Notes under the pieces: model-generated
What the model was told of the DNA's origin: nothing
Seen by the model: the letters and a program-made list of their open reading frames with translations, nothing else
Databases searched by the model: none
Part shown: positions 4,944 through 34,979 of the stretch, in pieces
How positions within the stretch are numbered: position 1 is the first letter of the stretch
Layout of the letters: every line of letters starts with the position of its first letter
Assembly (NCBI GenBank): GCA_018175075.1
Contig: GCA_018175075.1_4100.3
Reading direction: 5' to 3' (one strand)
Origin: a phage
Length of the DNA stretch: 36,131 nucleotides
Translations under genes and position numbers: made by a program

Positions 4944-5488
4944 ATGAGATAGAGTTATTAGCACACAAGATAAGTACAATAATGCTTATCCTCAATAACA
5001 ACCATCCTATATCGCATATAGATGGAATCCTGAGTCAGAGGACAGGTGGTAGTTTATATTTGTCCATAAACGCAGATATCGCAAGGAAATACATTGATAT
5101 TGATGTTGAAATCGAATATGATACAACGGGGATTGTTGATGTAGGTGCATTAATCAGTTCAAATCCAGTATCAGCATCCCCATTGACCAAAGATGTTAGT
5201 ACAGGATTCGAAGGATATTTGTGGTACAATACCAATGATGATTATTTTATATATCAGCATTCCAATACAAATTATGATGAAGACAAATTTCAGTTCATAG
5301 ACCCTTATGATGAAGCTGAAGTATTTCAAAAATCATTAATCACAAAACCGCATGAGATGATGTATCTAATGTTATTCAGTACAATGCATTTGAATCCATT
5401 AATTAAAGGTTTAAAATTTTATATTCAATTAAATTTAGTCCATGTAGTTTATGATTTATTAATGCAAGGATATAGTTATGAAGTATAA
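4940..5488 (+). CDS. hypothetical protein, family B (divergent)
   Basis: Motif EAEVFQKSLITK. Confidence 0.6.
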   Translation: MNEIELLAHKISTIMLILNNNHPISHIDGILSQRTGGSLYLSINADIARKYIDIDVEIEYDTTGIVDVGALISSNPVSASPLTKDVSTGFEGYLWYNTNDDYFIYQHSNTNYDEDKFQFIDPYDEAEVFQKSLITKPHEMMYLMLFSTMHLNPLIKGLKFYIQLNLVHVVYDLLMQGYSYEV

Positions 5489-10709: not shown

Positions 10710-10902
10710 TAGTGATATTGCAAAGGAGAAGTTCAAGTGCAGTTTAGATTTTGGGTTAAATGATTTTCTGACATGCACAATGTACAGGAATGATGATTAT
10801 GAGCAATCCGTAATTTCGTTGCACAGATATTTCGAAATAATTTACGCAAGATATCTTAGAAGGTTAGAGGGAATAGGGGATTGGAATTATGATTACGTTT
10901 GA
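10693..10902 (+). CDS. hypothetical protein
   Basis: Track ORF 10672-10902; internal ATG 10693 has AAAGGG RBS-like sequence; start uncertain. Confidence 0.45.
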   Translation: MKSASNSDIAKEKFKCSLDFGLNDFLTCTMYRNDDYEQSVISLHRYFEIIYARYLRRLEGIGDWNYDYV

Positions 10903-11113
10903 AGAGCCGGAAGTGGCATATTGCTTTAGTGTGAAAGGTTTTGAATTCATGATGGATTCTATTTTGAAGGATACATATTTGGTTCAGATTGCAGTTCCAG
11001 ATAATACAGATAATGCATTACAGCGAGTATTGAATATATACGAGAGGACGAGTCGAAGGCTTTGTGCAATGAAAAGGATTGAAGAAATCAAGCTTTCTAT
11101 GCTGAATAAATAG
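10889..11113 (+). CDS. hypothetical protein
   Basis: 74-aa ORF; GGGGA upstream of ATG. Confidence 0.5.
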   Translation: MITFEEPEVAYCFSVKGFEFMMDSILKDTYLVQIAVPDNTDNALQRVLNIYERTSRRLCAMKRIEEIKLSMLNK

Positions 11114-11138
11114 AGACGTTTCATTTTGACAGGCCGCT

Positions 11139-11147
11139 GGGGGGGGG
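11139..11147. repeat. G9 homopolymer tract
   Basis: Nine consecutive G in intergenic region, directly after a TTGACA hexamer (11126-11131) and before an A7 run. Confidence 0.9.
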
Positions 11148-11312
11148 TCAAAAAAATTTCCGCTGAAAAACATGCTAAGGTATATGTTTAATATAAAGTT
11201 TTATATTGTGTTTTTCAGAGTACAGTTCATGTTTCTTGAAACAAAAAATACCCCGCCGCCGAACGTTCTCCTTATATTGGAGTTTACCTTATTAATTATA
11301 GTAGAGATTAAG

Positions 11313-11690
11313 ATGGAAATAAAATATAATGAATTTTGTGCAAGGACATGGATGTACACTGGTGAGTTAGTTACGCACTCTAACTTATACAAGGGTGATT
11401 TAAACTACGCTAGGGACAAGATTTTAAAGTACTGGAATGCTGACTTTTATTTGATGGATTTTAGTACTGGGTTTAGGGGTAAAGCAACCGAGATGTTGGA
11501 CTATACAGTACTTGATGATGCTGCACTGTTTCAGGCGGCATTAGTATTTGATAAGAAGTACATCTGTACATTAGAAGAGATGATTGAATTACAGCGTAGA
11601 ATTAAATGTATTCACAGAGAATGTATAGACATCTGGTGCAGTACTGGTGAAGATGATTTTTGTAATCATTTCAATCTAGGGGAAGAGTGA
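11313..11690 (+). CDS. hypothetical protein, family B (KGD subfamily)
   Basis: Motif DAALFQAALVFDKKY; start set at ATG 11313 by length match to paralogs at 12219 and 12572 (track extends to 11172). Confidence 0.6.
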   Translation: MEIKYNEFCARTWMYTGELVTHSNLYKGDLNYARDKILKYWNADFYLMDFSTGFRGKATEMLDYTVLDDAALFQAALVFDKKYICTLEEMIELQRRIKCIHRECIDIWCSTGEDDFCNHFNLGEE

Positions 11691-26759: not shown

Positions 26760-26773
26760 ATTCGTACCAGGGG

Positions 26774-26802
26774 TTGACTCTGGTATTTTTGTATGATACA
26801 TT
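26774..26802 (+). promoter_or_regulatory. possible sigma70-like promoter
   Basis: TTGACT (26774-26779), 17-bp spacer, TACATT (26797-26802); followed by AAAGGAGAA RBS. Confidence 0.45.
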
Positions 26803-31338: not shown

Positions 31339-31470
31339 ATGGCTAAGAAAGTAAACAATTTCGTACAGAAACACATGAATGAGTTTAACAAGCCTCAGAC
31401 ACATGTGGATCGTAAAAAAGAAATGAAAAATGGTAAAGTAAAACACAAGTCGAGATTTATTCTCGACTAA
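31339..31470 (+). CDS. small lysine-rich protein (43 aa)
   Basis: Not in track (under size cutoff); GGAG 5 nt before ATG 31339; sequence MAKKVNNFVQKHMNEFNKPQTHVDRKKEMKNGKVKHKSRFILD; terminator overlaps stop. Confidence 0.45.
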   Translation: MAKKVNNFVQKHMNEFNKPQTHVDRKKEMKNGKVKHKSRFILD

Positions 31471-32364: not shown

Positions 32365-32658
32365 ATGGATACTAAATTCAAAATTATTTTTAAAACTAAG
32401 CCGTATATTCCACATACAGCAGAACGTTTTATACCACATGGTGCTGAGGAAATTATTCACCAAGATGGTACTAAGTTATACCTTGTTCCTTGTTCTTATG
32501 AACGTGCAGTAGAAATGTTACTAATGAATGCTAGACTATGCAAAAACAAGTACATTAGTTACCTATACAATGAACATATTTTAGATTTCAATGATGAAAA
32601 TATGTTCATTCTAGCAATTGAGGATTTTGATAACTGGTACAATATTATTAAAATCTAA
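32365..32658 (+). CDS. hypothetical protein (97 aa)
   Basis: GGAGGA RBS before ATG 32365. Confidence 0.6.
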   Translation: MDTKFKIIFKTKPYIPHTAERFIPHGAEEIIHQDGTKLYLVPCSYERAVEMLLMNARLCKNKYISYLYNEHILDFNDENMFILAIEDFDNWYNIIKI

Positions 32659-32666
32659 TGAAAATA

Positions 32667-32705
32667 ATGTGAACATATTAGATTCTTGTGATATAATGTT
32701 CACAT
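32667..32705 (+). promoter_or_regulatory. promoter with embedded palindrome (candidate operator)
   Basis: Perfect 10-bp inverted repeat ATGTGAACAT (32667-32676) / ATGTTCACAT (32696-32705), 19-bp spacer; extended -10 TGaTATAAT at 32689-32697 lies inside it. Confidence 0.55.
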
Positions 32706-32729
32706 CTTTTTTTGATAACGGAGATATAG

Positions 32730-33116
32730 ATGAATACAAGTTCAATCCTAAAAGCAATTGGTGGTGTTTTACTCATTGAAGTAAAAGGTGAGCCAAAGCT
32801 ATGCTGTTTAGAAGATATGAAGAATACAAAACACTTCAGTACTGGTCAGATTTTCAATGCCATTCGTATTCTAAATGACAAATCCATTGCTGATTATGGA
32901 AAAGTTTGGCCTGTATATCAAAATGCTGATGGTGATATCAGTACTGATTGGAAAACAATTGAGGCGGTACGACAAAGTTGTGAGAGTGATTGGGACTTCA
33001 TTGTTGAAGTTTGTGTTCAACTACAAGAAGATGTTCCAGAAATTGTCGAACGAAAAGAAGTCCTAGCACGACTTGAAAAATTCCGTCACGGAACACTACA
33101 GTATGACACAATCTAA
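32730..33116 (+). CDS. hypothetical protein (128 aa)
   Basis: GGAG RBS before ATG 32730; first gene after palindromic promoter. Confidence 0.6.
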   Translation: MNTSSILKAIGGVLLIEVKGEPKLCCLEDMKNTKHFSTGQIFNAIRILNDKSIADYGKVWPVYQNADGDISTDWKTIEAVRQSCESDWDFIVEVCVQLQEDVPEIVERKEVLARLEKFRHGTLQYDTI

Positions 33117-33165: not shown

Positions 33166-33471
33166 ATGGAAGACAATGGAATGAAATTTGATATGTTTGA
33201 AGGTGTACCAGAGTTCGATTTCAACAAACTTGAAGAAGGTGAGGAATCAGAACTAGTTAGTGTTACACTTAAAGCAGATTCTAAAAAGAAATATTCATCA
33301 TCAGTACGTTCACGTTCACAAGAAGAATACGAAACATTTATTGAAAGTATTCATTATGAAACATTCCATCACGCAGATGGAACTCCATATGAAGTACGTG
33401 TAACAGTACTGAAGCCTGAAGTAAATCCAATGGAAAATCTACGTCCTGTTTACTGCTGGGCAAGTCACTAA
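33166..33471 (+). CDS. hypothetical acidic protein (101 aa)
   Basis: AAAGGAA RBS; followed by terminator. Confidence 0.6.
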   Translation: MEDNGMKFDMFEGVPEFDFNKLEEGEESELVSVTLKADSKKKYSSSVRSRSQEEYETFIESIHYETFHHADGTPYEVRVTVLKPEVNPMENLRPVYCWASH

Positions 33472-33477
33472 TAAACC

Positions 33478-33510
33478 AAAGGACGGGATTTGTTATCTCG
33501 TCCTTTTTTT
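33478..33510 (+). terminator. rho-independent terminator
   Basis: AAAGGACG ... CGTCCTTT hairpin followed by T-run. Confidence 0.65.
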
Positions 33511-33522
33511 GTCTGGAGATGT

Positions 33523-34377
33523 ATGAAACTTTATCTAATCGTTGACTACAATAAGGATTATGCTGGTAACTTCACCGAAGATTCGGATGGATATTGCACA
33601 TCGACTAATGTCAATGTACGTAGCAGTAGTGCTCATGAACATGAATCTTGTAAAAATCTAAAAGATTTTATCGCATACCGAGCATTTGAAAAGAACTTCT
33701 GCCGCAGTAGATATTCGAAGTTTGAGTACCCGTTAATTGATGTTCCTGATGATTTAATGTTCCAGTTAATGCTGACTGGAGTTCAAGATTATGATTACAT
33801 AGCATATAATCATATTACTAAGAAAATTTATATTGGTACATCATCACATGACACTTCTATGTATGCATCATGCCCAGATGATCGAATGAATGATAGAAAA
33901 TCATACTATAGTGGGTCAGTTGGTTTAAATGATTCATTAAATAAAAATTCATTCTTTGAGTATGTTTATGATTACCATCATGAGAAAAAAGAACGTGAAG
34001 ATTACTGTATAGCAATTGATAGTACTAATGGTTATGAAGACGTGAAAGAAGCACTTATGCCGTACATTATTGAAAAGTACTACAAAGATTTTCAGTACTG
34101 TAGTAATTTTCTAATCAGAAATTCTATTATAATCGGTCGCCAATCTAGTGCATACTCTCAGTACTATAATGATTCACCAGTAGCATCGGCAAATGAAATG
34201 TGTGATATTTTACAAATTCCACGTGAAGATATGGCATTCATTTTTACATCTTTTATTGAAGATGATGAGTTGTATATTAAAAATAAACACCGTTTCATGC
34301 CAAGCAAGATTGAGGTTATTCGAAGTTTTAGTGTTGATATACTAACAAATTTCACAGAAAAAACCGAATATAACTGA
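33523..34377 (+). CDS. hypothetical protein (284 aa)
   Basis: GGAG RBS before ATG 33523 (track TTG 33490 lies inside terminator); contains FQ-like DDLMFQLMLTG. Confidence 0.6.
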   Translation: MKLYLIVDYNKDYAGNFTEDSDGYCTSTNVNVRSSSAHEHESCKNLKDFIAYRAFEKNFCRSRYSKFEYPLIDVPDDLMFQLMLTGVQDYDYIAYNHITKKIYIGTSSHDTSMYASCPDDRMNDRKSYYSGSVGLNDSLNKNSFFEYVYDYHHEKKEREDYCIAIDSTNGYEDVKEALMPYIIEKYYKDFQYCSNFLIRNSIIIGRQSSAYSQYYNDSPVASANEMCDILQIPREDMAFIFTSFIEDDELYIKNKHRFMPSKIEVIRSFSVDILTNFTEKTEYN

Positions 34378-34405
34378 GACAAATGATAAGTTAATGATAT
34401 AATAT

Positions 34406-34439
34406 AAGGTGACAACATAATATGTTAGTCACCTTTTTT
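34406..34439 (+). terminator. rho-independent terminator
   Basis: AAGGTGAC ... GTCACCTT hairpin followed by TTTTTT. Confidence 0.7.
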
Positions 34440-34441
34440 AA

Positions 34442-34979
34442 TCCTGAAAGGTTCCCATAAGGAAATGATTAAAAGCCTAATCCACTCGAAAATGTAGAGG
34501 GTAGATGAGTAGTCCTTTCAGTACGAACAGCAGATGAAACCCGTTAGATGATGGCATAGTTTGAACCACTCACGGCAATGCGGCTGTATAAAGAACTCCA
34601 ATAGGATAAAGAGAGTTCCTCGATAGACATATAAGGATCGCACCTTACCAATTATCTAAGGGAGATTTCATAAGAAATATGCGGTCGGAATTATACAATA
34701 TAGTTGCGTCCAAATTTTGTGAAATCAAATACAAGTACTGGTCATATGGTATTTGTATTATGTGTCGGGATGTTTAAGACCGACGACCGTTGCTACAAGA
34801 ACCGCGATAGAGAGAAACAGAGCAACCCGCTTTCGTCTCGTAAGAGAATTCGTGATATGAACTATGTGAAGGCCACCAGCGTCAAATTTTTTTGTTCTTT
34901 CCCCTGCGGGGGGATGAAATATGCTCAAGCAAACCCCGTCAATATTAATTAAAAGAAAATAGTACTTGTAGAATTAGAC
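34442..34979. other. GC-richer noncoding island (candidate structured RNA or cis element)
   Basis: ~540 bp without a convincing ORF; locally GC-rich by eye (e.g. CCCCTGCGGGGGG, GTCGGgatgtttaagaCCGAC); bounded by terminator and next gene. Confidence 0.35.

Follow-up and report, generated by a model that had tools for sequence, protein, structure and literature searches.

The stretch of phage DNA analysed here, referred to below as the window (36,131 nt), is part of the genome of an Asteriusvirus jumbo coliphage of the 121Q/PBECO4 type. Over the 3 kb around the site of interest it is 99.3-99.8% identical to Escherichia phages 121Q, PBECO4 and G17 and their relatives, jumbo myoviruses of ~350 kb that make up the genus Asteriusvirus. 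Every gene in the window lies on the + strand and the annotation consists of hypothetical proteins; no tRNA, and no Rfam family at its gathering score, was found in the window. The whole 121Q genome (348,532 bp) served for genome-wide counts, and all of its TGnTA(T/C)AAT sites were listed. The site is located between the homologues of 121Q genes 412 and 413, within a block of five genes (gp411-gp415) that is syntenic in at least four genera. The following features were recognised in and around it:

32365-32658, + strand: homologue of gp412, with its stop codon 8 nt before the left arm of the palindrome
32660-32667, + strand: A-rich tract GAAAATAA, UP-element-like, adjoining the -35-like box on its upstream side
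32667-32676, + strand: left arm ATGTGAACAT, containing the -35-like hexamer TGAACA (32670-32675)
32676-32688, + strand: promoter spacer, also most of the hairpin loop, invariant in length and free in sequence
32689-32697, + strand: extended -10 element TGaTATAAT (TGATATAAT)
32696-32705, + strand: right arm ATGTTCACAT, comprising the last 2 nt of the -10 element, the discriminator GTTC and the start-site context ACAT(C)
32707-32713, + strand: run of seven T, transcribed as a U-rich 5' leader when RNA starts at this promoter and, on read-through RNA, as a tail after the hairpin resembling that of a terminator
32720-32732, + strand: Shine-Dalgarno sequence GGAG (32720-32723) and the gp413 ATG at 32730
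32730-33116, + strand: homologue of gp413 (128 aa), first gene of the unit, PHROG 15570, without function annotation
33166-33471, + strand: homologue of gp414 (101 aa), second gene of the unit, without function annotation
33478-33512, + strand: canonical intrinsic terminator of the gp413-gp414 unit, with a 12-bp stem, a loop of 5 and a T run

Searches of the two downstream genes against Pfam and PHROGs assigned no function. The AlphaFold model of gp413 is of high quality (pLDDT 92.9, pTM 0.86) and consists of two strands and six helices, for which Foldseek returned no neighbour in the PDB at E <= 0.001; the model of gp414 is poor (pLDDT 59). The record of phage fENko-Kae01 reports the detection of the gp412 and gp414 homologues by mass spectrometry. 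The terminator that closes the unit is strong (-16 kcal/mol, z -6.2). It was annotated by ARNold in G17 and a terminator is also annotated at the homologous place in Munch, and therefore the unit consists of promoter, two genes and terminator and is conserved across genera.

Several of the short elements are shared by the whole genus. The motif AAAATA(A/T) in the A-rich tract is present in all Asteriusvirus orthologues, and the consensus of the promoter class described below is A-rich at the equivalent place; the sequence GGAGATA at the Shine-Dalgarno site is invariant in Asteriusvirus. The T run varies in length from 5 to 9 within the genus, with 7 in the window, 8 in 121Q and G17, 9 in TH47 and 5 in ph0011, A4 and CMSTMSU, a variation that slippage or sequencing error could explain.

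The first-pass annotation had drawn attention to a perfect 10-bp inverted repeat, and the repeat is indeed there: ATGTGAACAT (32667-32676) is followed, after a gap of 19 nt, by its exact reverse complement ATGTTCACAT (32696-32705). The TG (32689-32690) and TATAAT (32692-32697) of the extended -10 element lie between and partly within the arms, the right arm including the last two bases of the -10 element. With looser matching, the A tract in front of the left arm and the T run behind the right one lengthen the arms to 16 nt, with 88% complementarity. A bare perfect hairpin-type repeat of 10 bp is not rare, as the window contains seven of them with a loop of at most 40 nt, against 3.1 +/- 1.8 in Markov shuffles. 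Repeats of at least 10 bp that embrace an extended -10-like motif were found for 3 of the 145 motifs in 121Q, where permuted upstream/downstream pairs predict 0.5; two of the three lie at the very locus studied here. By our own arithmetic, chance would produce one such case with a probability of ~16% in a genome with ~50 likely promoters, which is not improbable. Embracing repeats are no trait of the promoter class, since the mean best repeat is 5.48 for its members and 5.46 for permuted controls.

Further copies of the palindrome, which had been proposed as a check, did not turn up: the inverted pair of arms occurs a single time in the 348,532 bp of 121Q, and the window holds no second exact copy. 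The half-site TGTGAACAT by itself occurs 8 times in the 348 kb, with 4.4 expected. A search of IMG/VR with TGATATAATGTTCRCATC for more orthologues yielded only 121Q itself and unrelated matches in coding sequence.

The claim of an extended -10 promoter at this position is well supported, as its position and geometry are conserved at 20 orthologous loci and it is part of a genome-wide class. A promoter scan reported TGAACA, a 16-nt spacer and TATAAT preceded by TG, with 10 of 12 matches; the call nevertheless rests on the comparative evidence, because the same scan finds equally many sites in shuffled sequence. The -35-like box TGAACA in the window agrees with TTGACA at only 4 of 6 positions, and the TGGACA of most relatives at 5 of 6.

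The 20 orthologous loci lie 5' of the gp413 homologue in annotated phages and in metagenomic contigs, located via their gp413 homologues, and they represent at least four phage genera. The box, the 13-nt length of the spacer and the extended -10 element are shared by Asteriusvirus, Munch/fENko-Kae01, Serratia phage BF and Cronobacter phage GAP32. The spacer measures 13 nt at all 20 loci yet comes in at least seven different sequences, so that its length is fixed while its sequence drifts. Within Asteriusvirus the extended -10 element is invariant except in Turkey3, which has CG for TG. The other genera mostly display TGnTA(T/C)AAT; the metagenomic locus lgn_P0009 has GGA for TGn, and RaK2 lacks the -10 element. 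At the position of the box BF and GAP32 carry TGAAACA. Downstream, RCATC follows 5-9 nt after the -10 element in most of the genera without the repeat, being shifted by one position in Munch and replaced by GCACC in BF and GAP32.

The class to which the promoter belongs could be delineated in 121Q from 19-23 position-locked sites with a common layout: an A-rich tract, the box (T/G)(G/A)GACA(A), 13 nt, and TGnTATAAT. RCATC at the start site is counted as a further part of this layout. The sites precede replication, protease, sigma-factor, ncRNA-like and other genes. Examples in 121Q are found at 5208, 15313, 38032, 68650, 101459, 214321, 247458, 258205, 277218, 298208, 321919 and 326620, and a further example is found in the window at 34375-34403. 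The promoter upstream of gp413 has the geometry of the class, with TGAACA replacing GGACA, and the class matrix ranks it 38th among the 697,000 positions of the genome. In the columns that had not been used for selection it scores -8.0, versus -10.5 +/- 8.3 for sites outside the class, although with 19 training sites these columns carry too little information. A literature search retrieved no promoter or transcript map for 121Q-like phages, and no description of a (T/G)(G/A)GACA promoter class in Asteriusvirus.

The 20-mer TGTGATATAATGTTCACATC of the right arm recurs unchanged at a second promoter in 121Q (274149-274168), where a TTGACA box and TTGAAACG lie upstream. This promoter precedes gene 563, annotated as an ATPase, and lacks a left-arm partner of at least 8 nt.

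On these grounds a simple course of events can be proposed for the locus. RNA polymerase holoenzyme, with either the host sigma-70 or the phage's own factor of the sigma-70 family, gp167 in 121Q, would bind TGaTATAAT and TGAACA, the latter a degenerate -35-like box. The start would lie near A32704, the predicted +1 some 7 nt after the -10 element, and the resulting mRNA would have a U-rich leader and the GGAG ribosome site. This mRNA would code for both gp413 and gp414, with its 3' end set by the terminator at 33478-33512.

The arms of the palindrome are made of the same promoter parts. The left arm is the -35-like box and the right arm the end of the -10 element plus the conserved discriminator and start region, and a separate regulatory site is probably not involved. 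Like GGACA in the rest of the class, the box in the left arm is position-locked 13 nt 5' of the TG, and in most relatives it reads TGGACA. The sub-elements within the arms are conserved in genera that lack the repeat. The repeat itself follows another course: the number of Watson-Crick pairs is 10 in the window, 121Q, G17 and ECO103, 9 in ELP22 and UES1, 8 in the slurp01 group and 7 in ph0011, JNE01 and A4. Two metagenomic Asteriusvirus-like lineages retain 5 and 4 pairs, and the other genera at most 3. An alignment of the arms from eight sequences contains no pair changed on both sides, and thus no compensatory change; two pairs vary to G-U and three are mismatched. The perfect 10/10 repeat is confined to the 121Q subclade, in which position 32672 is A and not G. 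This G-to-A change perfected the stem, yet it weakened the match to the consensus of the box, a point against the reading that we prefer, in which the palindrome is most likely a lineage-specific by-product of an ordinary, well-conserved promoter. On balance we consider that the site is probably just that, a conserved promoter of the sigma-70 extended -10 type, with a palindrome that emerged from its parts.

The first-pass annotation had instead read the locus as a repressor operator laid over a promoter. One half of that proposal stands, namely the extended -10 promoter facing gp413-gp414; the operator is unsupported, as two of the three observations named beforehand as speaking against it were made, the palindrome being unique and not conserved. 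If a dimeric repressor occluded the -35 and start regions and so regulated gp413-gp414, a perfect 10-bp dyad spanning the promoter is what one would look for, and repeats embracing extended -10-like motifs do exceed the permuted controls ~6-fold (3 vs 0.5), albeit with two of the three at this locus. Each arm also contains a CRP-type half-site, TGTGA or TCACA. However, the dyad occurs once in the 121Q genome, its half-sites are mismatched to each other in most relatives, and it is absent from other genera in which the promoter is conserved. The centres of the arms are 29 bp apart, or ~2.8 helical turns, so that two half-sites would face different sides of the helix. A nearby helix-turn-helix regulator, another of the proposed checks, is not among the recognisable Pfam families in the window, none of its 79 ORFs having a Pfam DNA-binding domain (new folds fall outside such a scan), and the adjacent genes belong to PHROGs without function. 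Since both arms are moreover accounted for by promoter elements, we regard an operator as highly unlikely.

Two known kinds of site were considered for comparison and rejected. In a CRP site TGTGA and TCACA are 6 nt apart, whereas the pentamers in the arms are 26 nt apart. A DnaA box was likewise rejected; the resemblance to it in the relatives is 7 of 9.

A different role for the repeat could be sought in RNA. The stop codon of gp412 lies 8 nt before the left arm, so RNA reading through from upstream would carry the hairpin, and the promoter's own transcript would be without it because its start falls at the 3' end of the right arm. Only read-through RNA from gp411-gp412 would thus fold the hairpin (-11.4 kcal/mol) ahead of U7, and the hairpin probably terminates some of this read-through. 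The result would be a compact terminator-promoter junction, bearing no sign of selection, that resembles the PeSLs, the promoter-early stem-loop cassettes of T4-type phages (Arbiol et al. 2010, PMC2839356; Comeau et al. 2014, PMC4122927). The 39-nt hairpin has a z of -3.0, and its folding energy reaches -14.7 kcal/mol with the A/U tracts; the equivalents in the relatives range from -3.7 to -10.9 kcal/mol. For the 42 nt preceding the T run the folding energy is -12.1 kcal/mol, a value reached by 1.3% of random 42-mers but by 9% of the 42-mers preceding T runs of at least 6 in 121Q, an enrichment of ~7-fold over random. These genome-wide T-run statistics favour a real terminator more than they do the by-product reading.

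It may therefore be asked whether the hairpin is a selected cassette of the PeSL type, in which stem-loop and U7 stop the gp411-gp412 transcripts and insulate gp413-gp414. Its placement suits that role, as it begins 8 nt past the gp412 stop and ends 1 nt before the T7 run, and so does its stability, -11.4 to -12.1 kcal/mol, which is within the range of the canonical terminators of the window (-10.5 to -16) and of a kind enriched before T runs in 121Q. Seven to ten pairs, G-U included, are retained in 9 of 13 Asteriusvirus-like lineages, and both of the transitions seen in the arms yield G-U. Overlapping junctions of terminator and promoter occur elsewhere in the phage, among them a repeated cassette GGGTTGACTTCGGTCAGCCC-TTTTT-GCTATAAT, and the stem-loops of PeSLs are proven terminators in T4-type phages (PMC2839356). 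The evolutionary record points the other way. The arms show no compensatory change; in A4 the stem is down to -4.5 kcal/mol (z -0.7), in lgn_P0004 and lgn_P0006 it is gone while the T run and the promoter remain, and other genera possess the promoter with neither hairpin nor T run. The loop of 19 nt is long, the inner pairs are unconserved and only 3 of the 10 stem pairs are G-C. A terminator scan made no call here, and in G17 and UE-S1, where terminators nearby are annotated, this site is not. We therefore hold a selected cassette to be rather unlikely, if the most serious of the alternatives. Partial termination of read-through is likely a physical side effect in the 121Q lineage, with no demonstrated or selected function, because the stem decays in the relatives, the loop is long, the inner pairs are unconserved and the predictors are silent.

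The hairpin also has a neighbour. The coding sequence of the gp412 homologue contains a perfect 14-bp inverted repeat (32569-32582 with 32597-32610, loop of 14 nt) that has TGAACATATT in common with the left arm of the palindrome. TGAACAT occurs four times in 137 bp here, in alternating orientation, which makes this one of 22 such 7-mer clusters in 121Q, compared with ~2 in shuffled sequence. That the two hairpins (32566-32613 and the one at the promoter) descend from a diverged duplication was considered and rejected, as their alignment score of 24 is beaten by unrelated segments of the window.

Together the two hairpins could in principle form an attenuator of four segments (32569-32582, 32597-32610, 32667-32679 and 32696-32705), pairing 1:2, 2:3 or 3:4, in which ribosomes translating the last part of gp412 would control the termination, by the 3:4 hairpin and U7, of read-through into gp413. 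The pairings exist, 1:2 being the perfect 14-bp repeat, 2:3 a perfect 10-bp repeat and 3:4 the palindrome itself, and the TGAACAT cluster (4 in 137 bp) is rare in shuffles. In addition RNAalifold retains hairpin 1:2 with two compensatory pairs, and the 171-nt region folds with a z of -3.6. Segments 1 and 2 are nevertheless coding, and their changes are mostly drift at synonymous sites; ECO103, a recombinant within the loop, breaks one of the 'compensated' pairs. The 2:3 pairing is down to ~7 pairs in the slurp01 group (read by eye), the similarity of the two hairpins is not significant and the 3:4 stem is unconserved. An attenuator with this logic therefore seems extremely improbable. The wider proposal, that the hairpins at 32569-32610 and 32667-32705 jointly act, in the 121Q lineage only, either as an attenuator sensing read-through or translation or as sites for an unrecognised phage factor, and so insulate gp413-gp414, we judge to be very improbable. 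The reading that we prefer remains that of a conserved promoter with an incidental palindrome.

Junctions at which hairpins and promoters meet were observed at other places in the same genomes. In 121Q a PeSL-like cassette, AAAGGGTTGACTTCGGTCAGCCCTTTTTGCTATAATTATTTCATCAA, is repeated, with a G/C-rich terminator hairpin that holds the -35 box TTGACT, a spacer with a T run and an extended -10 element. It is found at 109276, 110558 and 112726 (also at 101936 and ~98690), amounting to 3-4 near-identical copies within 14 kb. The window contains one junction of the same design at 26764-26800, with the hairpin at 26764-26786 and the TTGACT box in the loop. At 34375-34439 a promoter of the class, TGAGACAA-12 nt-TGATATAAT, is combined with a hairpin formed by AAGGTGAC and GTCACCTT and followed by T6 (~34406-34439), which begins within 3 nt of the -10 element ending at 34403 (coordinates read by eye). 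RNA arriving from gp415 would run into a terminator there; RNA made from the promoter would begin within the 5' arm and avoid it. The records of G17, Munch and GAP32 mark a terminator at the place homologous to 34406-34439.

Upstream of the gp411 homologue the window has a hairpin at 31448-31468 that looks like a bidirectional terminator, followed by TTTTTTGTATAAATT (to 31483). The latter resembles the late promoter of T4-type phages, TATAAATA. If it were a real late promoter, gp411-gp412 and gp413-gp414 would fall into different temporal classes. Farther upstream, at 11128-11160, a G9 homopolymer (CTGGGGGGGGGTC) followed by A7 is found in the gap between the ORFs at 10889-11113 and 11172-11690.

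Downstream of the unit, the 600-nt gap after gp415 (34378-34979) contains a promoter-driven, non-coding element of ~460 nt with its core at 34482-34940. The element is found at 66-76% DNA identity across the genera of Rak2-like jumbo phages, in 4-5 copies per genome, including Munch, BF, GAP32, CBB and Erwinia, Yersinia and Xanthomonas phages; its paralogues in 121Q are located at 326676-327149, 90332-90783 and 247513-248041. All four copies lie just 3' of an extended -10 promoter (121Q coordinates read by eye). In an alignment of eight sequences 96.6% of the cells pair, and 39 of the 75 predicted pairs display compensatory change; none of 500 shuffles reaches 39, and slid controls give 5-11. 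The element has no match in Rfam 15, and in most records it is unannotated and lacks an annotated CDS. It is probably an undescribed structured RNA family. The four ncRNAs defined by RNA-seq in phage PA5oct (PMC7318152) are candidates for comparison. Lying 1.7 kb downstream of the palindrome, this RNA with its covariation provides, by contrast, an example of a structure under selection in the same set of genomes.

Asteriusvirus jumbo phages, so far sparsely annotated, gain a well-supported promoter and a described promoter class, which helps to delimit transcription units among hundreds of genes without an assigned function. The site also illustrates how the components of a promoter can by themselves give rise to a conspicuous palindrome across it.

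The site can finally be compared with systems that are better characterised. With dyad operators that overlap promoters, of the lambda, LexA and CRP type, it shares an exact dyad over the -35 and start regions, and the pentamers TGTGA and TCACA add to the likeness. The centres of known operator half-sites are 10-11 bp or ~21 bp apart, against 29 bp here, and unlike these operators the site is a single copy with unconserved half-sites and no cognate regulator among 79 ORFs searched with Pfam. With intrinsic terminators it shares a stem-loop, U7 after 1 nt, a preceding A tract and a position 8 nt past a stop codon, and the stability of the hairpin is similar to that of the weaker terminators of the window. 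It differs from their compact G/C-rich stem and loop of 3-8 nt in having an A/U-rich stem, a long loop and no covariation.

As for the promoter, the RpoD-like and 'divergent RpoD-like' promoters of CBB and GAP32 come closest; these were predicted with MEME, without mapping of start sites (Buttimer et al. 2017, PMC5259590). They belong to related jumbo phages; their -10 element is classic, their -35 region unusual (TGAAACG), and an A/T-rich element lies upstream (PMC5259590). The BF and GAP32 orthologues of the promoter described here have TGAAACA where Asteriusvirus has TGAACA or TGGACA, in agreement with that unusual -35 region (PMC5259590). The consensus of the Asteriusvirus box, (T/G)(G/A)GACA(A), differs from that of CBB and GAP32, and a palindrome has not been reported for the promoters of the latter.

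The junction as a whole is reminiscent of the PeSLs, despite clear differences. PeSL stems are usually G/C-rich (GGGG...CCCC) with short loops, whereas the stem found here is A/T-rich with a loop of 19 nt. Similar copies of PeSLs are found repeatedly and favour recombination; the present hairpin occurs once in its genome and is poorly conserved. PeSLs are hosted by T4-type phages, the phage studied here being an Asteriusvirus. Yet in both cases a short intergenic unit fills the space from an upstream stop codon to a downstream Shine-Dalgarno sequence amid small genes without assigned function, and an AT-rich tract and a sigma-70-like promoter are combined with a stem-loop that overlaps the promoter boxes. 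Their logic matches as well: the stem-loop acts on transcripts arriving from upstream, an activity that for the present site is a predicted one, and the promoter restarts transcription.
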